Shown piece after piece: positions 40,333 to 58,204 of a DNA stretch of 64,000 nt. Position 1 is the first letter of the stretch; each line of letters opens with the position of its first letter. The DNA is taken from assembly GCA_016182905.1 (NCBI GenBank), contig JACPFR010000044.1, positions 59,000 through 122,999 of the forward strand, in the 5' to 3' direction. Below the pieces are notes generated by a model, which saw only the letters and a list, made by a program, of their open reading frames with translations, did no database searches and had not been told where the DNA came from. The position numbers were made by a program, and so were the translations under genes. This DNA is from Elusimicrobiota bacterium (lineage in GTDB: Bacteria > Elusimicrobiota > Elusimicrobia > UBA1565 > UBA9628).

Positions 40333-42315
40333 TTGGCGTCGAATGAAAAAGCCGGGCGGCCGCTCTGGTCGCTCGGCTTTTTCATTATACTGTCCGCGTC
40401 CGCCGCTCACGCCATGAACCATAACGTCCTGCATCGCACGCCGCTCGACACCGCCGGGTCCCGCGCCGCGGGCCTCGAGCGTCTGCCTTTCGCCGAGGGC
40501 CTGTACCGCACCAAAGCCGCGACGGCCTCGCTCGAGTCGCGGGATCTCGAGGCCCCGTTCCCGTTCGACGACCTCGTGGGTTCCTTCGCAGCGGAGGTTC
40601 CCGCCGGGGGCGAGGCGGAGCTGAGCGTGAAGGTCCGCTTCGCGGACGGCTGGAGCGAGTGGTTCTCGCTCGGCAGCCTCCGCTCCGACGGCTGGAGCTC
40701 GCCCGCCGCCGTCCCCGCCGCCGCCGCCGTCGACGCGCCCGCGGCCGTGGACGTGGACACCCTCAAGCTCAAGAAGCCGGCCTCCGCGTTCCGCTACCGC
40801 GTGAAGCTCAAGGCCGGCAGGAAGCCGGTGCGCCTGCGCTCCGTCGCCGTCGCCGTGTCCGACGCGGAGGCCCCCGCCGCGCCGCCCGCGTTCGCGTCCG
40901 GGCCGTGGGTCCGCGACCTCGGCCTTTCCCCCCGCTCGCAGGGCGACGCGCAGGAGAAGTACAAGCACGACATCTGCTCGCCGACCTCGCTGGCGATGGT
41001 CCTCGAGCATTGGGGCCGGAAGCTCGACCTCGAGGCGGTCGCCCTCGCGGCGCAGGACCGCGGCTCCCAGCTGTTCGGGAACTGGCCCGCGAACGTCGCC
41101 TACGCCGGCTCGCTCGGCCTCGAAGGCCGCGTCGCGCGCCTCGAGTCGCTGGCCGACGTCGAGTCCGAGGTCGGGCACGGCCGCCCGGTGATCGTCAGCG
41201 TGACCTTCTCCGAGGGCGAGCTGCCGAACGCCCCGATCAAGAGGACGCGCGGCCACGTCATGGTCGTCGGCGGCTTCACCGCCGAGGGCGACGTCGTCGC
41301 CTACGACCCCGCGGGCAAAGGCAAGGAGGGCGTGCGCCGCGTCTACGCGCGGGCCGCGTTCCACAAGGTCTGGCGCGGGCGCAAGCGCGGTCTGGCCTAC
41401 CTGATCGGCCCCACCTTCCCCCGCGAGTTCACCGTGGGCGCGCCCGTCGCCGACCTGTGGACGAAGCCGGTCCGCCGCGCCGGCGTCAAGCTCGACGACG
41501 AGGCGCATCTCTCTCAGATCCTCTACGGCGAGGTCGTGACGGCCCTCGAGGCGAGAGGCGAGTGGGTCCGCGTGCGCGCCGAAGAGCAGGAGAGCTTCCT
41601 GCATTCCGGCGATTGGCAGGGCTACCCGGGCTGGATGAGGGCGGACGCCCTGGTGTCGGCGCCCCCGCCCAGGTCCGGGCCGATCGTCCGCGTGCGCCAG
41701 GCCCTGCTGCAGCGCGGCGACGACCTGCTGACGCTCTCCGTGGGCACTCGCCTGTCCTTCGTCTCGGACAGCGGCAGCGCGACCGTCGTGCGCCTCCTCG
41801 ACGGCTCGCTCGCCGAGATCCCGTCGGCATCTCTGTACGCCGCGCCCGCCGAGCCGACCGCCGCCTCGCGCGCCGAGATCATCCGCACCGCCGAGCTCTT
41901 CCTCGGCACCAGCTATTACTGGGGAGGCCGCTCCGGCGTCCAGCCGGACCCGAAGATCGGCGTGGACTGCTCCGGCCTCGTGAGCCTGGCCTACCGGATC
42001 CACGGCCGCGACGTCCCGCGCGACTCCCACGAGCAGAAGCTGCACGCCAAGCCGACGCGCAGCGCCGCGCTGCAGGCCGGGGACCTGATCTTCCTCACCG
42101 ACGACGAGACGAGCGAGCGCATCACCCACGTCATGATCTTCACCGGCGGCGACGGGCTCATCGAGAGCCGCAAGTCCTCGGGGCGCGTGCTGCGCACGAC
42201 CTTCCTCGAGCGCTTCGGCCAGCCCCTGACCGCCATCGAGTCCGGCGACGCGGTGAGCGACCTCTCGTTCCCCCGTCCCCGCCGGCGCCGGATCTTCTTC
42301 GGCTCGTATTTCTAG
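40333..42315 (+). CDS. Secreted peptidoglycan hydrolase with peptidase C39-like domain and C-terminal NlpC/P60 domain
   Basis: Signal peptide present. C39-like region HDICSPTSLAMVLEHWG. NlpC/P60 region GVDCSGLVSLAYRIHG ... HVMIFTG. 660 aa. Confidence 0.75.
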   Translation: MASNEKAGRPLWSLGFFIILSASAAHAMNHNVLHRTPLDTAGSRAAGLERLPFAEGLYRTKAATASLESRDLEAPFPFDDLVGSFAAEVPAGGEAELSVKVRFADGWSEWFSLGSLRSDGWSSPAAVPAAAAVDAPAAVDVDTLKLKKPASAFRYRVKLKAGRKPVRLRSVAVAVSDAEAPAAPPAFASGPWVRDLGLSPRSQGDAQEKYKHDICSPTSLAMVLEHWGRKLDLEAVALAAQDRGSQLFGNWPANVAYAGSLGLEGRVARLESLADVESEVGHGRPVIVSVTFSEGELPNAPIKRTRGHVMVVGGFTAEGDVVAYDPAGKGKEGVRRVYARAAFHKVWRGRKRGLAYLIGPTFPREFTVGAPVADLWTKPVRRAGVKLDDEAHLSQILYGEVVTALEARGEWVRVRAEEQESFLHSGDWQGYPGWMRADALVSAPPPRSGPIVRVRQALLQRGDDLLTLSVGTRLSFVSDSGSATVVRLLDGSLAEIPSASLYAAPAEPTAASRAEIIRTAELFLGTSYYWGGRSGVQPDPKIGVDCSGLVSLAYRIHGRDVPRDSHEQKLHAKPTRSAALQAGDLIFLTDDETSERITHVMIFTGGDGLIESRKSSGRVLRTTFLERFGQPLTAIESGDAVSDLSFPRPRRRRIFFGSYF

Positions 42316-43671
42316 ATGGCGAAAAAACCCCTGATCCACTTCGTCGGCATCGGGGGCGCGGGCATGAGCGCGCTGGCGCAGATCCACGCCATGGACGGCG
42401 GCCCGGCGACGGGCTCCGACCGGGACTTCGACCGCGGGCGGGGCGCGGGGCTGAAGGCCAAGCTCGAGGCCCTCGGCGTGAAGCTGTTCCCGCAGGACGG
42501 CAGCGCGCTCACCGATGGAACGGAGCTCGTGGTGCTGTCCACCGCCATCGAGGACTCCAACCCCGAGATCGCCGCGGCCAAGGCCCGCGGCGTGCCCCTG
42601 ATGCACCGCTCCGAGTTCCTGGCCCGCCACGTGTCGGAGATGCGCACCATCGCGGTCACCGGCACGAGCGGCAAGTCCACCGTCGTCGCGATGATCTTCG
42701 AGATCCTCGAGGCCGCCGGGCGCGGGCCGTCCGTCATCACCGGCGGCGCGCTGATCGCGCTTCAGAAGCGCGGGCTCACCGGCAACGCCTTCCGCGGGAA
42801 GTCGGACATCCTCGTCGTCGAGGCGGACGAGAGCGACGGCTCCTTGGTCAATTACAAGCCGGCCGTCGGCGTGTTCCTCAACCTGACCAAGGATCACCTG
42901 GAGGTCTCCGCCCTGCGCGAGATCCTCCTCAAGTTCCGGCTCCACGTCGCGACGGCGCTGGTCAACGGGGACGACGCCGCGCTGGCCGGCATCCGCGCCG
43001 ACGCCACGTTCGGCTTGTCGTCCGGCTCCGTTCACGCCGAAGGCCTCGAGCTCGAGGCCGCCGGCTCTCGGTTCCGCGTGAAGGACGTCTCATTCGAGCT
43101 TCCCGTCCCCGGCCGTCACAACGCCGAGAACGCGATCGCCGCGATCGCGGCGTGCGTCAACGAAGGCGTCTCGCTGGCCGACTGCGCCCGGGGATTGGCC
43201 GGCTTCCAGGGCGTGACGCGCCGCTTCCAGAGTCTCGGCTCCGCGCGCGGGGTGGAGGTCGTCGACGACTTCGCGCACAATCCGGCGAAGATCGCGGCGA
43301 CCCTCACCGCCGCCCGCCTGCGCGGCCGCCGGACCTTGGCCGTCTATCAGCCCCACGGCTTCGCGCCGACCCGCCATCTCAAGAACGAGCTCATCGCGGC
43401 CTTCGCCGAGGGCCTGCGCCCCGAGGACCGGCTTTGGCTGCCCGACATCTACTACGTCGGCGGCACGGCGAGCAAGGACATCTCCTCGAACGACGTCGTC
43501 GCCCCGCTGAAGGCCAAGGGCCTTCACGCCTTCCACGTGCCCGACCGCGCCGCCATCGCCGCCCTGATCGCCGCCGAGGCGAAAGAGGGAGACCTCGTCA
43601 TCGTCATGGGCGCGCGCGACCCCTCCCTGTCCGACTTCGCCCGCGAGGTCCTCGCGGCCTTGCGTCCCTGA
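42316..43671 (+). CDS. Mur ligase (UDP-N-acetylmuramate--L-alanine ligase MurC-like or murein-peptide ligase Mpl)
   Basis: IHFVGIGGAGMSALAQ ... VTGTSGKSTVVAM ... DESDGS ... HNAENA. Stand-alone rather than inside a dcw cluster, and next to a peptidoglycan hydrolase. Confidence 0.8.
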   Translation: MAKKPLIHFVGIGGAGMSALAQIHAMDGGPATGSDRDFDRGRGAGLKAKLEALGVKLFPQDGSALTDGTELVVLSTAIEDSNPEIAAAKARGVPLMHRSEFLARHVSEMRTIAVTGTSGKSTVVAMIFEILEAAGRGPSVITGGALIALQKRGLTGNAFRGKSDILVVEADESDGSLVNYKPAVGVFLNLTKDHLEVSALREILLKFRLHVATALVNGDDAALAGIRADATFGLSSGSVHAEGLELEAAGSRFRVKDVSFELPVPGRHNAENAIAAIAACVNEGVSLADCARGLAGFQGVTRRFQSLGSARGVEVVDDFAHNPAKIAATLTAARLRGRRTLAVYQPHGFAPTRHLKNELIAAFAEGLRPEDRLWLPDIYYVGGTASKDISSNDVVAPLKAKGLHAFHVPDRAAIAALIAAEAKEGDLVIVMGARDPSLSDFAREVLAALRP

Positions 43672-43723
43672 TCTCTCACGGATAATGCCGTAAAAACAAT
43701 CATTTATCCTCATTTCCGCGCCC

Positions 43724-43771
43724 TGTGGATATGTGGATAACTTTGTTAATTGTTATATTACTTATACATAT
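43724..43771 (+). promoter_or_regulatory. AT-rich regulatory region: tandem DnaA-box-like 9-mers TGTGGATAT / TGTGGATAA plus a promoter-like TTGTTA ... TATACA
   Basis: TGTGGATATGTGGATAA at 43724-43740 (reverse complement of the TTATCCACA consensus). A roughly 45% GC island lies about 110 nt upstream of the 43880 gene. Confidence 0.35.
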
Positions 43772-43879
43772 TTGTAACATGACAATTTAGGGCTCAGGCC
43801 GCGTCTGGGCCCTTCGGCCCCTCGCCCCGGGGGCACGCGGCCCCATGCGCCGGGCGGCGCCGGAGCCTATCCTTAGACC

Positions 43880-45421
43880 ATGAGGATCCAAGGTATCCTG
43901 ATGTCGGCGCTTCTCGCGATCTCGATCACCTCCCAGGCTCAGACGATCGTCCCCGATCCCGCCGTCATCGAAAGCCTCGGACTGACCGCCGCCGACGCCG
44001 GCTGGACCTACCGCGAGCCCGGCCGCGACGCCAAGGTCATCGCCGCGGAGGATTCCGCCAAGGTCGACGAGTTCCTGAAGACCGACGCCTCATCGAGCGC
44101 GAAGCTGGCGGCGTGGTGCCGAGAGCGCGGCGTCGAGCCCGAGAACGCGGTCGCCGCTCTGCTCGCCCCGCGTTCCTCATCCGGCCCCGCCGCCGTCCCC
44201 GCCGCGCATGACGACGCCGTCGCGGTCAAGGAAGCCGCCGAGCGCGGCCGGGCCCTGTCCGCTTCGCTGGGCTCCGCTCCCGATTTCGACGCGGCCGGCC
44301 ATCGCCCGCTCGACGCGACCTTGCGCTGGGGCTCGGCGCCCCGCGCCGAGGCGACGGGACGGAACCTGGAGACCCTGTACGGGCTCTACGGCCGCGGCAC
44401 GGACGCTCTCCTCGACAAGGCCGGCGCCGGCTCCGGCGGGACCGGCATGGCGGCCCGCATCGCCAAAGCGCCGCTGGACCTCGGCCTGGCCTGGACGACG
44501 ACCTTGGCCGGCCACGAGCTCGGACACTTCGAATCGGCCTGGCTGGCCGGCGCGAAGAACGTGTCCTGGGCCAAGGCCGACGGCCCCTACGCCTTCGGCC
44601 GCATCACCGAGGTCGCCTCCGAGGACTGGGCGCGGATGTCCGCCGCGGGACGCCAGGCCTTCAACGCGGGCGGCACGATGGCCACGCAGGCCGCCGCGGC
44701 CGCCCTGCGCTCCTCCCTGTTCGAGCGCGGAGAGGCCGACTGGACGCAGTGGCCGCTGATGTTCTTCCGCAAGGTCGACATGACCGCCTACGGCCTGACC
44801 GCCCCCAAGCCGTCGCAGGCCGGCGCCCTCGACGGAGCCAACGACATGACCAGCTACGCCCGCCTCTACGGCGAGCGCTCCGGCCGCGGCGGCGACGCGG
44901 TGCACGGCGACATCGTGCGCGGCGCGGTGTGGAACATGCTCGACCCGATGGGGCTTTACTCGGCCTATGGCTATCTCGGCCGCTACGTGATCGGCGGCGA
45001 GCGCACGCAGAAGGTCCCCGGCGTCGAGCTCTGCGGCCGGACCTGGATGGCGGGCACCGGCTTCTGGCTCTCCGAGGTCGGCGCGCGCTACTCCATGACG
45101 GTCCTCTCCCGCGGCAGGAAGGGCGATGTGATCGAGACGACCGTCTCGACCGGCGAAGGACAGCCGGCCGCGGCCGTGCGCTGGTCCGACGACGTCGGCG
45201 CCGGGATCCGCGCCCGGGTCGGCGTCGACGCCTGGAGCCAGCGCGAGGCGGCCGAGCAAGGGCCCAAGAGCTTCGGCGGCGCCCTCAGCGCCGGCGCGGA
45301 GAAGAAGTTCGGACGCGTCTCCGCCTTCGCCGAGGTCGGCCAGAAGACCACGGGCGCGATGCTCGGGCAATCCCACGGCGGCGGGACGTTCTACACCGCC
45401 GGCCTCTCGGGCAGCTTCTGA
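43880..45421 (+). CDS. Secreted HExxH-motif protein (putative zinc metallopeptidase of unassigned family)
   Basis: Signal peptide MRIQGILMSALLAISITSQAQ. LAGHELGHFESAWLAG. Gly-rich, C-terminal Phe. 513 aa. Confidence 0.5.
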   Translation: MRIQGILMSALLAISITSQAQTIVPDPAVIESLGLTAADAGWTYREPGRDAKVIAAEDSAKVDEFLKTDASSSAKLAAWCRERGVEPENAVAALLAPRSSSGPAAVPAAHDDAVAVKEAAERGRALSASLGSAPDFDAAGHRPLDATLRWGSAPRAEATGRNLETLYGLYGRGTDALLDKAGAGSGGTGMAARIAKAPLDLGLAWTTTLAGHELGHFESAWLAGAKNVSWAKADGPYAFGRITEVASEDWARMSAAGRQAFNAGGTMATQAAAAALRSSLFERGEADWTQWPLMFFRKVDMTAYGLTAPKPSQAGALDGANDMTSYARLYGERSGRGGDAVHGDIVRGAVWNMLDPMGLYSAYGYLGRYVIGGERTQKVPGVELCGRTWMAGTGFWLSEVGARYSMTVLSRGRKGDVIETTVSTGEGQPAAAVRWSDDVGAGIRARVGVDAWSQREAAEQGPKSFGGALSAGAEKKFGRVSAFAEVGQKTTGAMLGQSHGGGTFYTAGLSGSF

Positions 45422-47121
45422 TGCGGATCCGCGCGCTCCTCGCCGCGCTCCTGCTGGCCGCGCCCGCCTCGGCCCAGACGCGCGTCGCCGCGCCGGTCAC
45501 GAGCGTTCTTCCGCTTCGGATCGGCGTCGCGCCGATCCCGTCGCCGTCCGCTCCCGGCAGCCTCTCTCCGGCGCCGTCCCTGTCCGCGCCGCCGTCGCTG
45601 TCCGCCGTTCCGCTCGCCTCGCCTCTGATCGCTCCTTCCGCCATTCTGGCCGTCCGCCCCGCCGCCTACGCCCCTCTCCCGGTGAAAGTCGCGGCGCTCG
45701 ACGCCGGGATCTCGCGAGTCGTCGCCTCGCTCGCCGCCGACCCGGCCTCCGGCGCCGCCGCGCTGACCGCGGGCCGGGACATCGAAGCGCTGCTGACCGG
45801 CGCCGTCGTCTCCGCGCCGTCCGCGGCCGACGCGGCCGCCTCGCCGGAGGAGCTGGCCTTCGCCGTCGGCGCCTCGCAGGCGCTCGCCGCGCGCGCCGAC
45901 GACCTCGGCGCCGCGAAAGGCCTGAAGGCGCGGACCATGAGCGGCGCCGATTTCACGGGCATGCTCGACGAGGCCCGCGGCTCGGGAGCCCCCGCCCCGA
46001 CGCCCGCCGCCGCCGCGGCCGTCAAGGAGATCGAGGCGGCGGTCGTGCGCTTCGTCCGCGCCCTCGTCCCGGCGGACAAGCCGCTCGTCGAGAGCCTGAG
46101 CCGCGCGCTCGCCGTGTGGCAGGTCTTCGACCAGGAGATGTCCATCGCGGCGTCGAAGGGCACGCTCGGGGCGATCGTCGCCGACGCCGAGCTCTTCGCC
46201 TCGCAGGTCGAGGCTTCCGCGGCCGTACCGTCCGTCGAGCCCGCGCCGGCCGCCGCGCAGGCGACGCTCGCCCCGTCGACTCCGAAGGAAGTGCGCCCGG
46301 AGGACCCGAACGATTACGCCTCCGTGGCGGTCCCCGGCAGCATCTTCGGCTGGCAGCCGATCGAGAAGTCCCCCAACCACGGCTTTCCCCCGCTCGACGC
46401 GCTGATCCGCAAGGTCCTCGGCGAGAAGAAGAGCGCCTACGCGAAAGGCTTCGAGCTTCCCGGCGCCGCCGAGCGCGCGGACGCGAAGGTCTATTTCTAC
46501 GGCGAGCGCCACACCGACGGCGAGTTGATCAGCGCCAACATGAGGCGCCTCGTGTCGGACGCCCGCCCCGGGAAGCCGGTCATCGTCCTCGTCGAGGGCT
46601 ACACCGGCTGGGCCATGCGCGGCTGGCCGGCGCTCAAGTATCTCGCCGACCGCGGCCTCGACCCCGGCGCCCTGGCGGAGAAGGACATCCCGAGCGCCTT
46701 CGTCGAGGTGCGCGGCTGGGAGAACACCGTCCACTACGACGACTCCAAGCACCCGCTCCTGCAGCACCACATGGATCAGCTCGCGATGAACCACCTCGCG
46801 CACGGCGAGCTGCGCGGCTGGCGCTACTACCGGGAGATGGCGCGCGCGGCGCTGGCGGCCTGGCGCTCCTACCGCGAGCTGTGGCGGGCGGCCATCGTCG
46901 TGCGCAACGGCGACCTGAACGCCGCCGTCGCCAAGGCGGCGGCCGACGCGGACGCGTCCGGCGCGACGGTGCACGTCATCGCGGGCACCGACCACCTGAT
47001 GCAGAACCCGCGCCTGGTCGGCCTGCCGCTGATCGGACGCCCGTCCTTCCGCGAGACCTTGCGCGACGCCCTGGGCGGCCGCCCGTTCTGGGCCAGCCAG
47101 CCCCCCAACACTCAGGACTAG
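45421..47121 (+). CDS. Secreted protein with C-terminal ChaN/TIKI/EreA-superfamily domain
   Basis: Signal peptide and Pro/Ala/Ser-rich linker. KVYFYGERHTDGE ... PVIVLVEGYTGW resembles the ChaN GExH / E motifs. TGATG overlap with the upstream gene. Confidence 0.5.
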   Translation: MRIRALLAALLLAAPASAQTRVAAPVTSVLPLRIGVAPIPSPSAPGSLSPAPSLSAPPSLSAVPLASPLIAPSAILAVRPAAYAPLPVKVAALDAGISRVVASLAADPASGAAALTAGRDIEALLTGAVVSAPSAADAAASPEELAFAVGASQALAARADDLGAAKGLKARTMSGADFTGMLDEARGSGAPAPTPAAAAAVKEIEAAVVRFVRALVPADKPLVESLSRALAVWQVFDQEMSIAASKGTLGAIVADAELFASQVEASAAVPSVEPAPAAAQATLAPSTPKEVRPEDPNDYASVAVPGSIFGWQPIEKSPNHGFPPLDALIRKVLGEKKSAYAKGFELPGAAERADAKVYFYGERHTDGELISANMRRLVSDARPGKPVIVLVEGYTGWAMRGWPALKYLADRGLDPGALAEKDIPSAFVEVRGWENTVHYDDSKHPLLQHHMDQLAMNHLAHGELRGWRYYREMARAALAAWRSYRELWRAAIVVRNGDLNAAVAKAAADADASGATVHVIAGTDHLMQNPRLVGLPLIGRPSFRETLRDALGGRPFWASQPPNTQD

Positions 47122-47146
47122 ACGCAAAGTTGGTAGAATCCCGGCC

Positions 47147-48970
47147 ATGAAACGAGCGCTCGCGGCCGCGTTGCTCCTGGGCATGGCGCTGCCCGCCTAC
47201 GCCCGCACCAAGGCCCGGATCAAGGCCGAGACCCTCCCCGAGGAGCCCCGCCTCGCCGCGGCCGCGCCCCTGTATCCGGCGCGCTCGACCGAGCCGATCG
47301 TCTTCGTCTGGCCGACGGAGAACATGCCGCTCGCGGCCGAGAACGAGTTCATCTTCGGCTCGGTCTCCCCGGCGACCGCCCCGTTCACGATCAACGGCGT
47401 CACCGTCCCCGTCCACCGGGACGGAGGCTTCCTCGCGTTCCTGCCGATCGCGCCCGGCACCTTCACCTTCCGGGCCGAGCTGGCGCTCTCCTCGACGACG
47501 ACGGCGACGGCGGAGAGGCATATCCTCGTGCCCATGCCCGCGCAGCCCTTTCCCGGGAAGCTCGGCATCGATCCCGCCTCCCTGTCGCCCAGGGCCGACC
47601 TCGACCTGCGCGCCGGGGACTGGCTGACGGCGCGAATGAAGGGGACCCCCGGCAAGCCCGCGCGCTTCCGCGTGGGCAAGGGTCCCTGGCAGGAGATGCG
47701 CGGCTCCAACGCCGCGCTCGGGCTCTATGAAGGAACGCGGCAGATCGCGCTCGGCGAGGAGTTCGAGGCGGCGCCCGTCGTGTACGAGCTCGGGAAAGGC
47801 TGGTCGTCGGTCAAGCTCTCCGGCACGGCCCGCGTCTCGGCTTCGGCGCGCGATTCCCTGATCGCGACCGTGAAGACCAGCACCGCGGGCTTCGTCGCGG
47901 TCAAGACCGGCCCCGCCAACGGCTTCCTCTCCTTCCCGCTGGCCGGCACCCGGCTCACGGTGACCGGGCGCGAGAACAGCTCGCTGCGCGTGCGCCTGTC
48001 CGACTCCCTGTCCGGCTGGGTCGAGGCCAAGGACGTCGAGCTTTCCTCCGGCACGCCCCCCCGCGCGGTGACGGGCACGATCGGCGTCGCCAAGACCGCC
48101 CTCGGCGCGGCGGTGAAGATCGGCCTGTCGGAGAAGGCCGCCTTCGACGTCGAGCCCTCGGCCGGGCTCGACGCGCTGACGATCCGCCTCTACAACGCGG
48201 TCGGCCACACGAATTGGGCGGTCAACGAAGCCCCCGACCTCGTCTCGGAGGTCCGCTGGCGCCAAGAGGCCAGCGACGTCGTGGCCGTGACCATCCTGCT
48301 CAAGCCCGACGAGGTCCTGTGGGGCTGGTGGCCGTCCTACGAGGGGGGCGCCTTGCGCCTCGAGCTCCGCCGCGCCCCCAAGATATCGGATTACAAGCCG
48401 TTCTCTGGGATCACGATCATGCTCGATCCCGGGCACATGCCGTCGGCGACCGGCGCGACGGGCCCGCTCGGCACGCGCGAGATGGACGCGAACTACGCGA
48501 TCGCGGTCGCCGCGAAGGCGCGCCTGGAGCGGGCCGGCGCGTCCGTGCTGATGACGCGCAGCGACCCCCTTCACGAGGTCTCTCTCGTGGACCGGCCGAA
48601 GCAGGCCGTCGAGCGGGGCGCCGACCTCTTCGTGAGCCTGCACAACAACGCCCTGCCCGACGGCGAGAACCCGGCGGCCAAGCCGCGCGGCTTCACCGTC
48701 TTCTACTACCACCCGCAAAGCCTCGAGCTCGGCCGCGCCGTGCACGAGGCCTACCGCGGGCGGATCAAGCTGCCCGACGAAGGCCTGCGCTGGGGCAACC
48801 TGCTCGTCTCCCGTCAGAGCGCGATGCCGGCGATCCTCGTGGAGAACGCCTACATGATCCTCCCCGAACAGGAGGCCCTGCTCAACGACGCCGCGTTCCG
48901 CGACGAGCTCTCCCGGGCGCTGGTCGAGGGCCTCGAGCGGTTCTTGCGGAACGCGCGGAGGAAGCCATGA
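47147..48970 (+). CDS. N-acetylmuramoyl-L-alanine amidase (Amidase_3, AmiC-like) with N-terminal beta-rich domains
   Basis: Signal peptide present. GITIMLDPGH ... ANYAIAVAAKARLERAGASVLMTRSD ... DLFVSLHNNA. 607 aa. Confidence 0.85.
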   Translation: MKRALAAALLLGMALPAYARTKARIKAETLPEEPRLAAAAPLYPARSTEPIVFVWPTENMPLAAENEFIFGSVSPATAPFTINGVTVPVHRDGGFLAFLPIAPGTFTFRAELALSSTTTATAERHILVPMPAQPFPGKLGIDPASLSPRADLDLRAGDWLTARMKGTPGKPARFRVGKGPWQEMRGSNAALGLYEGTRQIALGEEFEAAPVVYELGKGWSSVKLSGTARVSASARDSLIATVKTSTAGFVAVKTGPANGFLSFPLAGTRLTVTGRENSSLRVRLSDSLSGWVEAKDVELSSGTPPRAVTGTIGVAKTALGAAVKIGLSEKAAFDVEPSAGLDALTIRLYNAVGHTNWAVNEAPDLVSEVRWRQEASDVVAVTILLKPDEVLWGWWPSYEGGALRLELRRAPKISDYKPFSGITIMLDPGHMPSATGATGPLGTREMDANYAIAVAAKARLERAGASVLMTRSDPLHEVSLVDRPKQAVERGADLFVSLHNNALPDGENPAAKPRGFTVFYYHPQSLELGRAVHEAYRGRIKLPDEGLRWGNLLVSRQSAMPAILVENAYMILPEQEALLNDAAFRDELSRALVEGLERFLRNARRKP

Positions 48971-50296: not shown

Positions 50297-51117
50297 AGCC
50301 GGCGCTGCTCCTCTGGCCGCTGCTCGCCGCGGCGCTCCTCTACCTCGGCCTGCGCCGCTTCGAGCGGTCGATGACCTTCGTCCCCTCGCGCGAGATGCTC
50401 GCCCACCCCGGCACCGTCGGCCTCGCCTACGAGCCTTTGTTCCTGACCGCCTCCGACGGCGTGAAGCTCCGGGCCTGGTGGATCCCCGGCCCATCCGAGG
50501 ATTCCCCGGTCATGCTCTGCCTGCACGGCAACGGCGGCAACCTCTCGCACCGAACCGACAAGATGCGCCTGTTTCACGACGCGGGCGCCGCCCAGCTGTG
50601 GCTCGACTGGCGCGGCTACGGCGAGAGCGCCGGGACCCCGGACGAGCCGGGCCTGTACCGCGACGCGCTCGCCGGCTGGGCGTGGCTCAACGCGGTCAAG
50701 GCCGTCCCCGCTTCGCGCCTCGTGCTCTACGGCGAGTCGCTCGGCGGCGCCCCGGCCATCGAGCTCGCCTCGCGCGTGCCCGCCGCCGGCCTGATCGTCG
50801 ACAGCTCGTTCACCTCGGCCGCCGACATGGCCCGGCACATCCTGCCCCGCTTCCCGGTCCGCCTCCTCAGCGCGCGCTTCGACAACCTCGCCCGCCTGCC
50901 GCGCGTGACGATCCCGACGCTCTTCCTGCACAGCCCGCAGGACGACATCATCCCCTACGCGATGGCCCTGAAGAACCTGGGCGCCTCCGGCTCGGCGAAG
51001 AAGCGCCTCGTCGACCTCAAGGGCTCCCACAACGAGGGCTTCCTCGACTCGGGGCCGACCTACCCGAAGGCGATCCGGGAATTCCTGGCGTCGCTGCCGG
51101 CGGAACCTAGGAAATAG
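50293..51117 (+). CDS. Alpha/beta-hydrolase (S33/S9-like serine hydrolase) with N-terminal membrane anchor
   Basis: GTGA overlap with the upstream gene. LCLHGNGGN ... GESLGG nucleophile elbow. Confidence 0.7.
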
Positions 51118-52000
51118 CCGTTCCCTCCCCCAGAATCCGCCGCCGCTCCGAATCGTTATGCGCCCTGCACAACAGCCGAAGATTTCCTATCTCGTCCGTG
51201 CCTCCGAGCGCGCGCGGCTTCACATGGTCCACCTCCAGGGACCTTCGTGCCAAGCACCTGACTCCCGTCGTTCCAATGTAGGCGCACCGCGCGCCGTCGC
51301 GCGCCCAAACGGAGCGGCGCACTCTTGCCGGGAGGGAGCTCCCGCCCTTAACGGGCGATAGGCGGCCCGGCAGTCCCTTTTCCGGATCGTGACGCGCCAG
51401 ATAATCCCGGGCTATCTCCAGAAGGATCTCGTCGATGGCTCCGCTCGGACATTTATGCCCCAGCAGTTGACGGGCTCGATCTATCGCCTCGCGAAGGGCC
51501 AGGGGACCTCGGAAACTGAAATCGACCCGCAGGACTGGAGCGCCATCCGTCCCCGACCCCGAAGCGACCGCGACGACACGGACCGAGCTCCTCCTTTCCG
51601 GTTCAGGCCGCAAGGGCGCGAGCATCTCGTCTATTTGCCGGGCGGATTTCCCCTCCGCCCGGGAGATGATCTCCGGGGCGTCCGGACGATGAACGAAGGG
51701 CGCTATCTTCGAAACGGCCGACAAAGACAGCTGACCGTCGGCCAGCGCTGAGAGCAGCTCGGGACGGGAGACCGTCGCCCGCGCGGCGTGGATCCTCCGA
51801 TATGATTCATCCTCGCTGAGCTTCAAGCGTCGGATGCAAAAGTCGAACGTGGAAGAATAGCCCCATTCTTCGGGAAGCTTCCGCCTGTCGGCTTCGCCGA
51901 GCCAGGACAGAAAGGAATGGAGGCGCTCGCGCTCCTCTTCCACGAAGCGATCGAGCCTCGCCAGCAGTTCCTCGCTCGACAACGACCTCGGGTCATCCAT
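51107..52000 (-). CDS. DUF222 + HNH endonuclease domain protein, in a roughly 62% GC patch
   Basis: C-terminal HNH motif EVDHVKPRALGGTDEIGNLRLLCRAHN. N-terminal DUF222-like region. Local GC is clearly below the surrounding 70-72%. Confidence 0.75.
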   Translation of the reverse strand: MDDPRSLSSEELLARLDRFVEEERERLHSFLSWLGEADRRKLPEEWGYSSTFDFCIRRLKLSEDESYRRIHAARATVSRPELLSALADGQLSLSAVSKIAPFVHRPDAPEIISRAEGKSARQIDEMLAPLRPEPERRSSVRVVAVASGSGTDGAPVLRVDFSFRGPLALREAIDRARQLLGHKCPSGAIDEILLEIARDYLARHDPEKGLPGRLSPVKGGSSLPARVRRSVWARDGARCAYIGTTGVRCLARRSLEVDHVKPRALGGTDEIGNLRLLCRAHNDSERRRILGEGTAIS

Positions 52001-52100: not shown

Positions 52101-52745
52101 TTATTCCAGATCGACGCCGCGCTGGGGGCAGTCGGGGCGCAGGAGGCAGGCGGCGCATTGCGGGTTGGCGGCCTTGCACACGCGCCGGCCGTGCCAGATC
52201 ACCGCGTGGGACCAGAACCTCCAATCCTTGCGCGGGACGAGGGCGTTCAGGTCGCGCTCGACCTTGACCGGGTCCTCCTCGTCGGTGAGGCCGAAGCGGT
52301 AGGCGAGGCGCTTCATGTGCGTGTCGACGACGACGCCCTCGGGCTTGCCGTAGATCTCGCCGAGGACGACGTTGGCGGTCTTGCGCGCCACGCCGCGCAG
52401 GGCGAGCAGGCCCTCCATCGTGTCGGGGACCTTGCCGCCGTGCTCGTCGCGGATGGCCCGCGCGGTCTCGATGATCGCCCGCGCCTTCATCCGGTAGAAG
52501 CCGCACGAGCGCACGATCGCCTCGAGCTCGGCGGGCTCAGCCTTGGCGTAGTCGTCGACGGTCTTGTAGCGCTTGAACAAGACCTTCGTCGTCGCGTTGA
52601 CGCGGACGTCGGTGCACTGGGCGGACAGGATGACCGCGAAGACGAGCTCGTGCGGCGTCTTGTAGTCGAGCTCGCAGTGCGCCTCCGGATAGAGCTTGCG
52701 CAGGCCCTTGAGCAGCTTGAGGACGCGCTCGGTCTTGACGCTCAC
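52101..52745 (-). CDS. nth: Endonuclease III (DNA glycosylase/AP lyase) with 4Fe-4S cluster
   Basis: HhH-GPD motif LLALRGVARKTANVV. C-terminal Cx6Cx2Cx5C motif CKAANPQCAACLLRPDC. Confidence 0.9.
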   Translation of the reverse strand: MSVKTERVLKLLKGLRKLYPEAHCELDYKTPHELVFAVILSAQCTDVRVNATTKVLFKRYKTVDDYAKAEPAELEAIVRSCGFYRMKARAIIETARAIRDEHGGKVPDTMEGLLALRGVARKTANVVLGEIYGKPEGVVVDTHMKRLAYRFGLTDEEDPVKVERDLNALVPRKDWRFWSHAVIWHGRRVCKAANPQCAACLLRPDCPQRGVDLE

Positions 52746-54481
52746 CGCTTCTCGATCGGGTAGTAGTAGATCCCGAGGTTCACGGGGTTGTCGACGAAGC
52801 CCTTCACCCAGCCCCGCACGCCGTAGACCCCGGCGGGATGCACGGTGAAGATCGCCGGCGCCTCGTCGAAGCCCTTGGCCAGGATCTTCTTGTACAGCGC
52901 CGCGCGCTTGGCGGGCGACGACTCAGCCGCGGCCTTCTCTATCATAACGTCGAGCTCGGGGTTCGCGTAACCCTGGGCCGACGGGTAGCGCCCCTGCGAG
53001 TGGTAGAAGGCGTAGATGAAGTTGTGCGCGTCGGGATAGTCGGCGAGCCAGCCGCGGGCGAACAGCGGCATGAGCCGCCGCTGGGCCTTGTCCAGGAAGC
53101 TCGCCCAGTCCACGCCGCGCAGGTCGACGCGGAACTTCGGGTTCAGCTTCTCTACGTTCTTCTTGAGGATCTGCGCCGCCGCCTCGCGGTTCTCGGAGCC
53201 GGTGTTGTAGGTGAGGGTGAAGCGGAAGCCCTTGTCCCAGACCTTGCCGCCCCAGGCCTTGCGCAGATGCGCCTCGGCCTTCTTCAGGTCGTAGGCGTAG
53301 CGCGGCTGCTTCGCGTCATAGCCGGGGACGCTCGGCGGGATAGGCCCGAAGGCGCGGGCGGCGGTCCCCTTGAAGGTGTCGCGCATGATCGCGTCGTAGT
53401 CGAAGGCGTAGGAGAAGCCGCGGCGCACGTCGGCGTCGGCGAAGAAGTCCGGCGGGACGCCCTCGCCGTCGAGCTTGCCGGAGCCGATGTCGGGATTGGC
53501 GACCGGGTTGATCCTGACCGTGAAGAACAGCGCCGGGTCGGTCTGCAGGCGGAGCAGGCCGTCGAGCAGGACGGCGCCGGGGATGCCCGCCACCTGCGAC
53601 GCGTACGGGCGCGGGGTCTCGATGAGGTCGGCGTCGCCGGCCTGGAGCATGAGCTTGCGCGTGTTGAGCTCGGGGACGGCCTTGATCAGCACCTGCTTGA
53701 GCTTCGCCGGGCCGCGGAAGTACGCGTCGTGACGCGCCAGCAGCACGTACCGGGCGGTCTTGTCCCAGCGGACGAGCTTGAAGGGCCCCGCGCCGTTCAT
53801 GTGCTCGTGGAAGTAAGACTTCTCCTTGGGCGGATCGTTGAAATCCTTCCAGGTCGCGGCCGTCCCGTCCCAGTCTCCGTGAGCGACCGCCCAGGGCTTG
53901 GACATAATATATGACCATCTGGCCATGATCCCGAGGAAGGGCCCGAAGGGCCGCGGCAAGGAGATCACCACGTCGTTGCCGTTGACGACAATCGCTTTCT
54001 CCAGAGCGGCGTAATCCAACGTGATCGTTCCGGACGAGTTTCGCGTCGAAGGCACGCCCGCGATCGGCTCGAGCAAAAGCGCCGAGGGCCCCCCCGCGCG
54101 ATCCGTGATCATGAACCGCAGGAGCGAGTAGCGCACGTCCTCGGGGGTGACCTCGGAGCCGTCGTGGAACCGGACGCCCTTGCGGATCGGGAAGCGATAG
54201 GTCCGTCCATCCGGGGAGATCAGCTTGTTCTTGAGGGAAGGGACCTTCTCCGCGATGCGCGGCTCGTATTCGGACAGCGAGGAGCCCTTGAACGCGATCA
54301 GCGTCTCGTAGACGTTCTGGATCACCGACTGGCTCGACCCGTCGTACGGATAGGCCGGATCGAGGCCGGCGGCCTCCCCGATCTCGAGGTTGGTGAAGGT
54401 GTCCGGGTTCTTGACCGGCTCGGCGGAGGCGGCGACGGCGGCCAGCAGGAGGGCGGTGATCATGGGGCCAAGATAGCGCAT
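52742..54481 (-). CDS. ABC transporter substrate-binding protein, family 5 (peptide/nickel type)
   Basis: Start at MRYLGPMITALLLAAVAASA. SBP_bac_5 architecture. 579 aa. Confidence 0.8.
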   Translation of the reverse strand: MRYLGPMITALLLAAVAASAEPVKNPDTFTNLEIGEAAGLDPAYPYDGSSQSVIQNVYETLIAFKGSSLSEYEPRIAEKVPSLKNKLISPDGRTYRFPIRKGVRFHDGSEVTPEDVRYSLLRFMITDRAGGPSALLLEPIAGVPSTRNSSGTITLDYAALEKAIVVNGNDVVISLPRPFGPFLGIMARWSYIMSKPWAVAHGDWDGTAATWKDFNDPPKEKSYFHEHMNGAGPFKLVRWDKTARYVLLARHDAYFRGPAKLKQVLIKAVPELNTRKLMLQAGDADLIETPRPYASQVAGIPGAVLLDGLLRLQTDPALFFTVRINPVANPDIGSGKLDGEGVPPDFFADADVRRGFSYAFDYDAIMRDTFKGTAARAFGPIPPSVPGYDAKQPRYAYDLKKAEAHLRKAWGGKVWDKGFRFTLTYNTGSENREAAAQILKKNVEKLNPKFRVDLRGVDWASFLDKAQRRLMPLFARGWLADYPDAHNFIYAFYHSQGRYPSAQGYANPELDVMIEKAAAESSPAKRAALYKKILAKGFDEAPAIFTVHPAGVYGVRGWVKGFVDNPVNLGIYYYPIEKR

Positions 54482-54600
54482 CGCGCGAGCCGTGTAAAGC
54501 GCGCGAGGACGGATACCGCGCCTCCAACTTAAATTCACACGGCCCGCATGGCGCCGCCCCGCCCCCCAGGCTATCATCTGCCGATCCCACGGAGGAAGAG

Positions 54601-55473
54601 ATGAACAAGAGACTCAATCAGCCGGTCCAGGCCGCGCGGCTCTGCCGGGAGCTGGGCCTGACCTTGATCGGCCCCGACAGGGAGATACTGGCGGTGGGCG
54701 GCCTCGACTCGCTCGAGGAGCATTCTCTGGCCTTCGTGAGGGACCGCGCTCCCGGGGCGGGCTCGACCGGCACGGTGTTCGCGACCGCGCCCCTGCCCAT
54801 GCAGGGCCTGACCGTGATCCAGTCCCTGAAGCCGCGGCTCGACTTCATCCGCGCGCAGCATATCCTCCGGAAATCGCCCGGATTCCTGGAGGATTCCACT
54901 CCGCCCGACATCCACCCGACCGTCCAGGTCGGGCGCGGGGCGGTGATCGAGAACGGGGTGAGGATCGGCGAAGGCACCTGCATCGGCAGCGGCGTCGTCA
55001 TCAAGTCCGGCACCGTGATCGGCCGGCATTGCGAGATCAAATCGGGGGCGATCGTCGGCGAGGCCGGCTTCGGGTTCGAGCGCGACGAGGAAGGCCGCCC
55101 GATCAAGATGATCCAGATGGGCGGCCTGCGCATCGGCGATCACGTCGAGATCGGCAGCGTCAACACGGTGTGCCGCGGCGCGCTCGGCGACACGGTCATC
55201 GAGGATTACGTGAAGACCGACGACCACGTCCACATCGGCCACAACTGCCGCATCGGGTCGGGGACGATGATCACGGCCTGCGCGGAGATCAGCGGCTCGG
55301 TCACGATCGGGAAGAACGCCTGGCTCGCCCCGAACTGCTCGATCATGCAGAAGGTCACCATCGGCGACGGCTGCTTCATCGGCATCGGAGCCGTCGTGCT
55401 GCGCAGCGTCGAAGCCGGGGCCAAGATGTTCGGCAACCCCGCCATGCGGATCGTCGTCCCATCCGGCGCGTGA
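54601..55473 (+). CDS. LpxD-like hexapeptide-repeat N-acyltransferase paralog (UDP-3-O-acylglucosamine N-acyltransferase family)
   Basis: LpxD-type N-terminal domain (LTLIGPDREILAVGGLDSLEEHSLAFV). Left-handed beta-helix repeats and catalytic His region DDHVHIGHNCRIG. Lacks the C-terminal helical extension. Not in an lpxA/fabZ context. Confidence 0.7.
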   Translation: MNKRLNQPVQAARLCRELGLTLIGPDREILAVGGLDSLEEHSLAFVRDRAPGAGSTGTVFATAPLPMQGLTVIQSLKPRLDFIRAQHILRKSPGFLEDSTPPDIHPTVQVGRGAVIENGVRIGEGTCIGSGVVIKSGTVIGRHCEIKSGAIVGEAGFGFERDEEGRPIKMIQMGGLRIGDHVEIGSVNTVCRGALGDTVIEDYVKTDDHVHIGHNCRIGSGTMITACAEISGSVTIGKNAWLAPNCSIMQKVTIGDGCFIGIGAVVLRSVEAGAKMFGNPAMRIVVPSGA

Positions 55474-56234
55474 GGCGGCGGCCGGCGCTCGGCCCGAACG
55501 AGGCTCACGTCTGGCTCGTCGCGGACGAGGCGATCGAGGCCCGTCCCGGCCTTCTCGCGGAGTACCGCCGCCTGCTCTCGCCGGACGAGGAGCGGCGGCT
55601 GCGGCGGCTGAGCCATGACCGGGCGCGGCGCGAATATCTGACCGCCCGCGCCCTGTGCCGCACCGTCCTTTCGCGGTACGCCGACGTCGACCCCGGGGAT
55701 TGGCGCTTCGCCCGGAACGAGCACGGGCGGCCGGAGGTCTCCGGGCCGCGAGGCCGCGGGCGCCTGCGCTTCAATCTGTCGGGAACGAGAGGCCTGACCG
55801 CGTGCGCGGTGACCTGGGAGCTCGACGCCGGGGTCGACGTCGAGGCCCTGAGGACGGTCGGGGCCGCCGACGGGCTCGCGGACCGCTTCTTTTCCCCGCT
55901 GGAGGCGCGCGTCCTCAGGGACCTGCCTCCCGCCCGCCGGCGGGAGCGCTTCCTCGAATACTGGACGCTCAAGGAATCCTACATCAAGGCCACGGGCAAG
56001 GGGCTCTCGATCCCGCTCGACCGCTTCTCGTTCCATCTCGACGAGGGGCCGGGCATCCGGATCTCGTTCGCCCCCGGGATCGAGGACTCGCCGCGGCGAT
56101 GGCAGTTCGCCCTCCTGAGGCCGACGGACGGCCACGTCCTGGCCTTGGGAGTGCGGCGCTCCAGCGGAGCCGAGGTAGCGGTCACGTCGCGAGAGACCGT
56201 GCCGCTTCGTGACGCCGGCGCCGCGCCGCGCTGA
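55470..56234 (+). CDS. Sfp/EntD-type 4'-phosphopantetheinyl transferase
   Basis: GTGA overlap with the upstream gene. GVDVE and WTLKESYIKATGKGLS motifs. The FNLSG motif variant lacks the usual His. Confidence 0.8.
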   Translation: MRRRPALGPNEAHVWLVADEAIEARPGLLAEYRRLLSPDEERRLRRLSHDRARREYLTARALCRTVLSRYADVDPGDWRFARNEHGRPEVSGPRGRGRLRFNLSGTRGLTACAVTWELDAGVDVEALRTVGAADGLADRFFSPLEARVLRDLPPARRRERFLEYWTLKESYIKATGKGLSIPLDRFSFHLDEGPGIRISFAPGIEDSPRRWQFALLRPTDGHVLALGVRRSSGAEVAVTSRETVPLRDAGAAPR

Positions 56235-57084
56235 CCGGCCGCGCCGGCGGGGCGGAAAGGGCGCGGATCGCCTCCTCGGGAGACTTGAAATGGTCCAAGA
56301 GGGCGTGCAGCCAGCGCTCGATGCCGAACGCGACGCAGCCCGTGTAGGCGGGCTTGCCGTCGGCGGTCGTTATGCGGCAGCGGTCTCCGAAGAAGTTCCG
56401 GTGGAAATTCATCGAGCCGAACGCCAGCGATCCCCCGTAGACGAACTCCTCCTTCGTCGGGAACAGGGCCTGCATCGAGGCCCTCGGGTTCGCGGGCTGG
56501 AAGAAGGGGTCGGTGGCGGCCTTGATCTCGAACGGCAGACCGAGCCCGCGGAGGAACCCCTGGATCATGCCCTTGAACGAAAGGAGGTGCTCCTGGACAG
56601 CGTCCATGGGGCCGACGCAGACGATCTCGCGCATCGAGAAGCCCCAGAGCCGCGACAAGCCGGCGTATTCCGTCTCGTTGCGGAAGCAGCTCGCGATCGT
56701 CGTGACGTACGCCGGCGCGTCGAGGCGCGTGTCCTGCAGGTGCAGATAGACGTTGTAGCAGGCGGCCGAGGGGAGGACGTGCGCGCTCGACGTCATGTGC
56801 TCCGCCGCGATCTCCTCGACGCCGGCTTTGAGCGCGTACTCCGCCTCGAGCTTCGACGCGGCGATCCTGGAGACGGACGCCGCCAGGTGCGGGAAATTCT
56901 TGAAGTAATCGAAGCGGCTCAGGTCCTTGACGCGCATCAGCGGGGGGAACAGCATCGGAGCCGCCCGGCGCGTCCGCGCCCACTCCAGGAACCGCCGGTC
57001 CAACATCGTACGGATGCGGACCATCTCGGGACCCAACGTCGCCAGCCCCTGCTCGACGCTATACGCTGACTTGAGTCCTCTCAT
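56182..57084 (-). CDS. Amino acid:[carrier protein] ligase (truncated class II aaRS / atypical SerRS-like catalytic core, no tRNA-binding domain)
   Basis: Class II motif 2 CFRNETEYAG...REIV and motif 3 GCVAFGIERW. Candidate zinc-ligand Cys residues. About 300 aa with no N-terminal coiled coil. Lies immediately downstream of the carrier-protein gene. Confidence 0.7.
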   Translation of the reverse strand: MRGLKSAYSVEQGLATLGPEMVRIRTMLDRRFLEWARTRRAAPMLFPPLMRVKDLSRFDYFKNFPHLAASVSRIAASKLEAEYALKAGVEEIAAEHMTSSAHVLPSAACYNVYLHLQDTRLDAPAYVTTIASCFRNETEYAGLSRLWGFSMREIVCVGPMDAVQEHLLSFKGMIQGFLRGLGLPFEIKAATDPFFQPANPRASMQALFPTKEEFVYGGSLAFGSMNFHRNFFGDRCRITTADGKPAYTGCVAFGIERWLHALLDHFKSPEEAIRALSAPPARPVSAARRRRHEAARSLAT

Positions 57085-57328
57085 TTTTCCCCTCCTCCAG
57101 GATGTTGGTCCGGATCAGCCGCAAGGTGCGCAGCGAATTCGCGGCCGACCCGGCCGCCAGCGGGATCCGCCTGCCGGTGAGCTCTTCCATGAAATAGACG
57201 AAGTTGATGAACGTGACCGAATCCAGGATCCGGTTGTCGATCAAGTCGGTGTCCAGATCGATCTCCTTGACGTCAGGCCTCTCCCGCAGCAGCCACTTCT
57301 TGACCTCTCCGATCCGTTCGTCGTCCAT
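57059..57328 (-). CDS. Dedicated acyl/peptidyl carrier protein (89 aa)
   Basis: Phosphopantetheine attachment motif LDSV (Ser36) in helix II. GGAGGA ribosome-binding site. 26-nt overlap with the ligase gene. Confidence 0.7.
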   Translation of the reverse strand: MDDERIGEVKKWLLRERPDVKEIDLDTDLIDNRILDSVTFINFVYFMEELTGRRIPLAAGSAANSLRTLRLIRTNILEEGKNERTQVSV

Positions 57329-57340
57329 GTGTCCTCCTTC

Positions 57341-58204
57341 CTAATGCAACGCGTCGAGCCGCTCGACCATGCCGTAGGTCCGCAAGAAGGCGAGGGACCG
57401 GGAGAGGAGTATCCCGTGCTGCTTCCGCCGTCCGGGCTGCCGGAGCAGCTCCCGACGGAACCCGTAGGCGTCCCGGATCCCCGCGTCCGCGTACATCTGC
57501 GGGTTGTAGAACGACTGGAGGGTGAAGGAGACGTACTCCTTGAGCTGGCCGCGGAAGACCGCCTCTTCCTCGGGGCCCAAGCGGCCGAGCAGCGCGTGAA
57601 GGTGCCGGGCGATCTGCCGGCCGGCGGCGATGTGCCTCGATTCGTCGGCGTGGTGCGCCGCGTTCAGGGCGCGGACGATCGGGGGCAGCCGCGCGTCCCC
57701 GCTCATCCGGATGTTGAAATGATCCCCGATCTCCTCGAATATGAGGATGCGCAGGAACACCAGGAAGAGGTCGAGCTCGGGGCGGATGTCGTCCTCCGAG
57801 ACGCTGACCGTCGAATCGGGATAGATCTTGCCGTACCGCCGGCAGAATTCCGAGAAGAACCACATGTGGTGGTTCTCTTCAGCGATGAACCGGTGGAAGA
57901 AATCGGAAGGGACCTCGAAGCCGCCCGTGTGGATGTGCCGGCTGATCACCATGATCAGCTCGCGCTCGCCGTGAAGGGTCAGGCTGAAGAAATTCAGGAG
58001 CGCGCGCCGGCTGAGCGCCTTCAGGGTCCGCTCGTCGAGGACGTCCATCAGCGGCGTGCCGTGGACGGACATGAGCTCCGGCGGCATCAGCCATTCGTCC
58101 TCGCCGATGCTTCCCGGCCATGCGAAGCGGCGGCGAGGATCGCAGTCGCGCTCGATCGAGCTCGCCGTCAGCTTCTCCAGAACCGCCGCGTAGGCCTCGC
58201 TCAT
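57341..58204 (-). CDS. Ferritin-like di-iron oxygenase of the AurF/CmlI (arylamine N-oxygenase) family
   Basis: Two ExxH motifs plus an extra His (EENHH, EEIGDH, HADESRH). 287 aa. First gene of the operon with the carrier protein and ligase. Confidence 0.6.
   Translation of the reverse strand: MSEAYAAVLEKLTASSIERDCDPRRRFAWPGSIGEDEWLMPPELMSVHGTPLMDVLDERTLKALSRRALLNFFSLTLHGERELIMVISRHIHTGGFEVPSDFFHRFIAEENHHMWFFSEFCRRYGKIYPDSTVSVSEDDIRPELDLFLVFLRILIFEEIGDHFNIRMSGDARLPPIVRALNAAHHADESRHIAAGRQIARHLHALLGRLGPEEEAVFRGQLKEYVSFTLQSFYNPQMYADAGIRDAYGFRRELLRQPGRRKQHGILLSRSLAFLRTYGMVERLDALH

Follow-up and report, generated by a model that had tools for sequence, protein, structure and literature searches.

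A short LpxD relative in Elusimicrobia, with a possible link to carrier-protein-dependent N-acylation

The window analysed here is a stretch of 64,000 nucleotides from an Elusimicrobiota genome (assembly GCA_016182905.1, contig JACPFR010000044.1), and the gene in question, at positions 54601 to 55473 of its forward strand, encodes a protein of 290 residues (aa) that resembles LpxD, the N-acyltransferase of lipid A synthesis. The safe part of our conclusions is that this gene is a diverged and shorter relative of LpxD that belongs to a distinct, uncharacterised family and does not encode a canonical LpxD. The name LpxD that it carries in databases is probably wrong. The best explanation of the evidence is that the product is a trimeric beta-helix N-acyltransferase other than the lipid A enzyme, an activity that we predict. 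What appears to be new is an N-acyltransferase of the LpxD lineage that departs from LpxD in its architecture, its active-site residues and its gene partners, and whose function is predicted from its context. We propose, giving it a little less than an even chance, that the enzyme N-acylates an amino sugar with an aminoacyl carrier-protein thioester as donor; in this proposal we infer the donor, the acceptor, the order of the steps and the amino acid.

The gene and its family

The gene and the parts of its product are the following:

54591..54596, forward strand: Shine-Dalgarno sequence GGAGGA, 4 nt before the ATG
54601..55473, forward strand: predicted short LpxD-like left-handed beta-helix N-acyltransferase, 290 aa (open reading frame, Hexapep, LpxD models, hhalign, Foldseek)
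54601..54894, forward strand: N-terminal domain, residues 1-98, judged homologous to the uridine-binding domain of LpxD (hhalign, AlphaFold2)
54895..55449, forward strand: left-handed beta-helix domain, about residues 99-283 (hhalign, AlphaFold2, family ends at ~282-284)
55219..55257, forward strand: predicted catalytic motif DDHVHIGHNCRIG, residues 207-219, with H214 equivalent to H239 of E. coli LpxD (residue mapping)

The GC content at third codon positions of the reading frame is 0.93, matching the other coding sequence of the window (~68% GC), and an identical protein deposited from an Elusimicrobia metagenome-assembled genome (MAG) is named LpxD there. Pfam recognises Hexapep repeats in four stretches (PF00132, E 1.5e-26, 91.3 bits for a cut-off of 27), and the nearest solved structures by sequence are the LpxDs of P. 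aeruginosa, A. baumannii, E. coli and C. trachomatis, followed by LpxA. The best NCBIfam matches are two LpxD models that cover residues 104-283 only, and the protein scores below the cut-offs of both, with 176.7 bits against 207 for PRK00892 and 161.1 bits against 242.5 for TIGR01853. The model of the NeuD/PglB/VioB sugar N-acetyltransferases (TIGR03570) also falls below its cut-off (98.8 bits against 160.8) and matches only the last beta-helix coils, at residues 178-281.

A word-indexed search with the protein returned 2,553 relatives, the best 120 of which are 52-100% identical to it and mostly 285-320 aa long. An exhaustive search of representatives at 50% identity gave 814 with E ≤ 1e-30; the best 150 among these are all short (most of 280-310 aa, a few shorter fragments, the longest of 338 aa) and their matches stop at query residue ~282-284. 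A truncated gene or pseudogene is ruled out, since the many members of the family share a length of ~290 aa and remain conserved as far as the final residues (GNPA). Ruled out as well is the truncation of a single lineage, as which the preliminary description of this DNA could be read: the protein is one member among many of the same length.

Family members and canonical LpxDs are clearly separated in a scan of GTDB species representatives. The former score 190-640 bits against the query and have no LpxA-like gene downstream, unlike the canonical LpxD loci, which were recognised by such a gene 0.4-1.5 kb downstream and score ~100-125 bits. The preliminary description had suggested a phylogeny of LpxD homologues as a check, and the neighbour-joining tree (100 bootstraps) unites the short family and a set of PIG-L-linked relatives in one clade (support of 95), apart from the canonical LpxDs, which form a separate group with a support of 69. 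Within the short family, the cores of clade i, which includes the window gene, and of clade ii have a support of 100 each. The scores below both model cut-offs, this separate clade and the changes at LpxD-invariant positions described below all bear out the earlier view that the gene is a relative of LpxD other than the canonical one.

Architecture and residues compared with LpxD

We compared 117 family members with 48 canonical LpxDs, the latter consisting of the E. coli protein and of LpxDs from loci with an LpxA-like gene downstream. Over the whole protein, hhalign gives a probability of 100% between the two sets. Relative to LpxDs of known structure (E. coli 3EH0/4IHF, P. aeruginosa 3PMO, C. 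trachomatis 2IU8), the window protein has a homologous N-terminal domain and beta-helix and shares the His-Asn and Gly-Ser pairs and the Phe at position 41 of the E. coli enzyme; it differs by the absence of the C-terminal helices, by about one coil fewer in the beta-helix (hhalign), by a deleted loop and by two substitutions in the active site. Short-family genes were also never seen beside fabZ or lpxA in the loci examined.

The preliminary description had claimed a uridine-binding-like N-terminal domain and a retained catalytic His region. The first claim holds as a homology. A local alignment of family residues 8-95 with residues 3-96 of E. coli LpxD has a probability of 97.6% (E 4.7e-12, against 0.19 for a reversed control), and F45, present in 117/117 members, aligns with F41 of the E. 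coli enzyme. On the strength of this profile-profile alignment and of the conserved positions, the domain is judged homologous to the uridine-binding domain of LpxD, nucleotide binding being putative. Yet the K46-Y47 loop of E. coli LpxD is deleted in the family (residue mapping), and Pfam and NCBIfam scans gave no match in this part of the protein, including to the LpxD N-terminal domain. The second claim is correct: H214 aligns with H239 of E. coli LpxD and is found in 116/117 members, with N215 and H211 in 117/117, and residue mapping shows that G232-S233 is conserved between the short family and LpxD as well. Other positions have changed. D216 of E. coli LpxD (48/48 canonical sequences) is replaced by C, V or A at position 191 of the short family, H276 (45/48) by K251 (117/117 members), and G275 by Q250.

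The alignment stops at residue 316 of the 341 of E. coli LpxD, where GNPAMRIVVPSGA stands opposite GIPLQPNKVWRKT, and the C-terminal helical domain of LpxD is missing from the window protein. The absence of the helical tail had been noticed before, with an end placed ~40 aa early; by alignment the missing tail is of ~25 aa, and the remainder of the 51-aa difference from E. coli LpxD lies inside the protein, where roughly one coil of the beta-helix and the K46/Y47 loop are lacking. In LpxD, the C-terminal helices are the surface that recognises and docks the acyl carrier protein (ACP) of fatty-acid synthesis. An AlphaFold2 model built with 117 sequences (mean local confidence, pLDDT, of 83 and predicted template-modelling score, pTM, of 0.74) has an alpha/beta N-terminal domain with pLDDT of 87-97, followed by the regular short strands of a beta-helix, and no helix after residue 91. 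When it is compared with the PDB by Foldseek, the top 25 matches are all LpxD chains, followed by LpxA, with E down to 4.5e-14 and ~317 aligned columns.

Gene partners in the window and among relatives

The neighbours of the LpxD-like gene are the following:

52742..54481, reverse strand: family-5 solute-binding protein of peptide/nickel type (SBP5), divergent neighbour (PF00496, E 9.9e-74; signal-peptide-like start MRYLGPMITALLLAAVAASA)
55470..56234, forward strand: Sfp/HetI-type 4'-phosphopantetheinyl transferase (PPTase), 254 aa (Pfam, NCBIfam, gene call)
56182..57084, reverse strand: seryl-tRNA-synthetase-like (SerRS-like) amino acid:[carrier protein] ligase, 300 aa (PF00587, NCBIfam, PDB match)
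57059..57328, reverse strand: stand-alone carrier protein, 89 aa, phosphopantetheine-site motif ILDS37V (open reading frame, weak ACP model match)
57341..58204, reverse strand: AurF-family diiron oxygenase, 287 aa (PF11583)

As noted in the preliminary description, the LpxD-like gene overlaps the start of a PPTase gene: the GTG at 55470 and the TGA at 55471-55473 share the 4 nt GTGA, and an independent gene caller agrees on these boundaries. The PPTase matches PF01648 (ACPS) with 72.2 bits for a cut-off of 25, and PF22624, the N-terminal half of AASDHPPT-type enzymes, with 26.7 bits, just below the cut-off of 27; its best NCBIfam match is HetI, at 132.8 bits and below cut-off. The same description was right that this is not the skp-lpxD-fabZ-lpxA arrangement, there being no FabZ, LpxA or second LpxD within the 64-kb window. 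The PPTase is one part of a neighbourhood of five genes, in which the ligase, carrier-protein and AurF-like genes form a cassette on the opposite strand. The 3' ends of the convergent PPTase and ligase genes overlap by 53 nt (56182-56234), and a search between the two units showed no hairpin resembling a terminator.

The ligase has the class II SerRS-type core, the Cys/Glu/Cys positions of the zinc site and an adjacent carrier-protein gene, which are the features expected of amino acid:[carrier protein] ligases. Its closest NCBIfam model, PRK07080, scores 128.3 bits against an equivalog cut-off of 357, which makes it a member of a related subfamily, and it matches the Bll0957 ligase in the PDB (3mey/4h2w) with E 4.5e-26. 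C108, E152 and C249, which align with the zinc ligands of Bll0957, do not vary across 22 homologues. Ligases of this type, Bll0957 and Atu2573 (PDB 3MEY, 4H2W), were reportedly described by Mocibob and colleagues in 2010, and share with the window a homologous ligase, these zinc-site positions and an adjacent small carrier protein. In the window the partner is an AurF-type diiron enzyme instead of a Rossmann-fold redox enzyme and an Atu2574-type reading frame, and the candidate transferase is a beta-helix protein. The weak match of the carrier protein to the 'ACP_for_OlsHI' model was set aside as generic ACP similarity, OlsH being a GH3-like enzyme unrelated to this system; a literature search on the OlsH/OlsI pathway brought nothing of use.

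The AurF-like protein aligns over nearly its whole length with PF11583 (residues 3-277 with 2-281 of the 282 profile positions; E 6.9e-30, 104.6 bits for a cut-off of 29.6). AurF-like N-oxygenases such as HamC and PvfB likewise have, next to their own genes, those for a carrier protein and for an enzyme that loads the amino acid; there the loader is an adenylation domain of a nonribosomal peptide synthetase (NRPS) and the products are diazeniumdiolates or pyrazine N-oxides, whereas in the window the loader is a ligase resembling aminoacyl-tRNA synthetases. The co-directional order AurF-like gene, carrier protein, ligase is conserved among 82 ligase loci from Acidobacteriota and other phyla (80 from metagenomes, L089-L168, and two look-ups), with an AurF-like gene in 57/82 and a carrier-protein gene in 56/82, many of the loci without them being short contigs. 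In these homologous cassettes the carrier-protein gene always lies between the other two. The remaining neighbours vary: L167 has NRPS, radical SAM and TauD genes, L168 has a condensation domain and a sulfotransferase, and KAS III-like genes occur elsewhere. A conserved transferase beside the cassette was sought in the other phyla and none was found. In the literature we found no description of the product of this cassette, nor an established function for amino acid:carrier-protein ligases and the AurF-like partner tightly linked to them, and we know of no function established for these ligases since 2010.

The relatives of the LpxD-like gene fall into three clades with different partners. Clade i comprises the window gene and L001, L005-L007, L087 and L088, all from Elusimicrobia and 78-100% identical. 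Its gene order is SBP5 (divergent), LpxD-like gene, PPTase, convergent ligase, carrier protein, AurF-like gene and then sdhC, and this neighbourhood is present in every relative in that identity range whose contig runs beyond the LpxD-like gene, apart from the PPTase in L005; L004 is a contig of 2.8 kb that stops at it.

In clade ii, also from Elusimicrobia (62-66% identity), the LpxD-like gene ends a co-directional operon of AMP-binding ligase, AsnB-type amidotransferase, NadE-like protein (of the ATP-pyrophosphatase type) and carrier protein. The carrier protein has 98 aa, carries the motif IDSLGVVEL and is encoded directly upstream of the LpxD-like gene. The operon is complete in L008/L084 (L084 5154-10870), L011 and L012, and the contig of L009 begins inside NadE, so that just the last three genes, from NadE onwards, are visible. 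Its first two genes best match TIGR03098 and TIGR03108, models associated with exosortase/PEP-CTERM exopolysaccharide systems, below cut-offs. In L010/L085 a nucleotide-sugar epimerase/dehydratase gene stands directly upstream of the LpxD-like gene instead of this operon. One MAG (LC012) holds both paralogs, L006 belonging to clade i and L011 to clade ii. The rfbK-O tetronate module of Vibrio cholerae O1, made up of an ACP, an AMP-ligase and a hexapeptide transferase that N-acylates perosamine, resembles the clade ii operon most: in it, a carrier protein of its own and an adenylating enzyme serve a beta-helix transferase that decorates an amino sugar of a surface polysaccharide. This transferase is not known to have an LpxD-type N-terminal domain.

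Clade iii (52-59% identity) is found in Burkholderiales, Betaproteobacteria and one Elusimicrobia MAG. Here a DUF2332 gene always abuts or overlaps the LpxD-like gene on its upstream side (L002 8955-10912, L003 8884-10957, L013-L015, L017), genes for a PIG-L deacetylase and WbqC are nearby, and the loci also hold Wzz/Wzy, glycosyltransferases, UDP-glucose dehydrogenase and sulfotransferases. The DUF2332 and WbqC partners match no solved structure or NCBIfam model. In short relatives that are further removed, from MAGs of Parachlamydiales, Nocardioidaceae and Anaerolineaceae, the gene just upstream encodes PIG-L. The recurring theme across relatives is a sugar de-N-acetylase paired with an N-acyltransferase, which suggests the logic of LpxC and LpxD applied to surface glycans. 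The parallel lies in the pairing, since in the relatives a gene for a de-N-acetylase comes just before the acyltransferase gene or at most a few kb from it; the differences are that the deacetylase is of the PIG-L/LmbE family and not LpxC, that the loci are polysaccharide loci, and that the window contains no deacetylase.

The SBP5 gene on the other side of the LpxD-like gene had been described as a peptide-binding protein gene ending 120 nt before it. It is indeed the neighbour, but on the opposite strand, and the gap of 119 nt separates two divergent starts, the SBP5 start being probably at 54481. The SBP5 protein is probably not part of the system; it could belong with a run of genes of peptidoglycan-turnover type at 40333-48970 (a C39-like plus NlpC/P60 peptidase, a Mur ligase of Mpl/MurC type and an Amidase_3 protein). 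In this part of the window, two large reading frames have no Pfam match (43880-45421 and, on the reverse strand, 38512-40005). An HNH endonuclease with a DUF222-like N-terminal region (51107-52000, reverse strand) lies between an alpha/beta hydrolase gene and the endonuclease III gene nth. The first 4000 nt of the window have a GC content of 0.59-0.63, against ~0.70 in the remainder, and may be foreign or mobile DNA.

Donor, acceptor and competing explanations

In the proposed pathway, the co-transcribed Sfp-type PPTase would first prime the 89-aa carrier protein, which the SerRS-like ligase would then charge with an amino acid as a thioester. On the carrier, this amino acid may be oxidised by the AurF-like diiron enzyme. 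The LpxD-like enzyme would finally move the aminoacyl group, modified or not, onto the free amine of an amino sugar, with H214 acting as the general base that deprotonates the acceptor amine, as in LpxD. The acceptor would probably be nucleotide-linked and held by the N-terminal domain, and the product would be an N-aminoacylated sugar destined for a surface glycan or a small glycoconjugate. An amino sugar is the most likely acceptor because of the PIG-L, epimerase and polysaccharide contexts of the family and of the retained N-terminal domain of nucleotide-binding type with its F41 equivalent. For clade i, the most likely donor is a thioester on a dedicated carrier protein, because the PPTase, which such a carrier requires, is transcribed together with the LpxD-like gene and because the sister clade appears to have been wired independently to a different carrier protein. 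The change of acyl-carrier donor put forward in the preliminary description is plausible in view of the PPTase coupling, the cassette and the sister-clade operon. Ligase systems of this kind have been predicted to aminoacylate the amino group of a cell-surface sugar (PMC2922099) and the AurF-like HamC oxidises carrier-tethered valine (PMC11659414), which makes the proposed chemistry plausible. The full version of this proposal, in which a transferase of LpxD lineage was recruited to take an aminoacyl thioester from a ligase-charged stand-alone carrier protein, perhaps after N-oxygenation or hydroxylation, and to install it on an amino sugar, is possible but doubtful.

Several observations weigh against a carrier-protein donor and an amino-sugar acceptor. 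The synteny of clade i also takes in unrelated genes (SBP5, sdhC), so that adjacency to the cassette could reflect recent common descent instead of function, and the cassette lies on the strand opposite to the LpxD-like gene. An LpxD-like neighbour is found in just 2/82 ligase loci, both from close Elusimicrobia relatives. In L005 (91% identity) the cassette is kept and the PPTase gene is absent, the end of the LpxD-like gene lying 30 nt from the convergent ligase gene (10870-10902); the PPTase at this position is therefore dispensable or was recently deleted. No carrier-protein gene was found near the family member in the clade iii loci examined, and no sugar-modifying, deacetylase or other acceptor-pathway gene near the LpxD-like gene in the window, where its surroundings include genes for the peptide-binding protein, endonuclease III, the HNH protein, peptidoglycan turnover and sdh. 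The global TM score of the AlphaFold2 model on LpxD is just 0.35-0.52, a poor superposition of the whole protein. The missing C-terminal domain, which docks ACP in LpxD, would also count against an enzyme that takes its donor from a carrier protein; its loss fits a change of donor, yet it equally fits a coenzyme A (CoA) donor. To our knowledge, the other short beta-helix sugar N-acyltransferases all use CoA thioesters.

The alternative that fares best is an N-acyltransferase acting on amino sugars of surface glycans with an ordinary donor, acetyl- or acyl-CoA or a housekeeping acyl-ACP, next to which the PPTase and the cassette would stand incidentally. We consider this possible, if on the unlikely side. 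It would account for clade iii and the distant relatives, whose polysaccharide loci (PIG-L, DUF2332, WbqC) do without a carrier-protein gene, for the resemblance of the end of the protein to CoA-dependent transferases of the NeuD/PglB/VioB type (TIGR03570), for a cassette that is self-contained and changes partners elsewhere, and for the unrelated genes in the conserved synteny. But it leaves aside the 4-nt overlap with the PPTase gene, the independent and conserved link of the sister clade with another carrier-protein gene, which immediately precedes its LpxD-like gene, and the lack of sugar-pathway genes near the LpxD-like gene in the window.

One might also speculate that the reaction runs in the reverse sense, with an acyl or 3-hydroxyacyl group from the ACP of fatty-acid synthesis being put on the amine of the carrier-tethered amino acid to give an N-acyl amino acid or lipoamino acid. 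The LpxD lineage with its catalytic His, the free amine that a carrier-tethered amino acid would have (by homology of the ligase) and the absence of sugar genes close by in the window are all consistent with this. Yet we regard it as improbable: the C-terminal domain of LpxD, which recognises AcpP, is absent, the conserved N-terminal domain of nucleotide-binding type with F45 (F41 in E. coli) would be left without a role, relatives pair with sugar de-N-acetylases, and an AurF-type N-oxygenase would require the same amine to be free.

That the gene is simply the housekeeping LpxD of lipid A, trimmed and in an unusual location, is very improbable: the databases name it so, its best matches in sequence and fold are LpxD structures, it keeps the catalytic His and the equivalent of F41 and the 64-kb window has no other lpxD, but it scores under the cut-offs of both LpxD models, D216 and H276, near-invariant in 48 canonical sequences, are replaced, K46/Y47 and the C-terminal domain are missing, the family forms its own clade in the neighbour-joining tree, one MAG has two family copies, and relatives occur in polysaccharide loci of Burkholderiales and in a Nocardioidaceae MAG. 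Since actinobacteria make no lipid A, this last relative makes it less likely that the wider family serves in lipid A synthesis. A search of the literature on lipid A in Elusimicrobia gave nothing usable.

Many members of the family carry the label 'UDP-3-O-(3-hydroxymyristoyl)glucosamine N-acyltransferase', which could mislead surveys of lipid A genes in uncultured phyla, and even in actinobacteria. The short family is also a natural experiment on substrate change in the LpxD scaffold, having lost the C-terminal ACP-docking domain and D216 and exchanged H276 for a lysine. The neighbourhood of clade i and the parallel operon of clade ii provide a concrete and testable candidate for an enzyme that consumes a loaded carrier protein. 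If the carrier-protein donor and the amino-sugar acceptor are right, amino acid:carrier-protein ligases would gain their first downstream acceptor enzyme, and a new route to aminoacylated glycans, independent of both the ribosome and NRPS, would be revealed.

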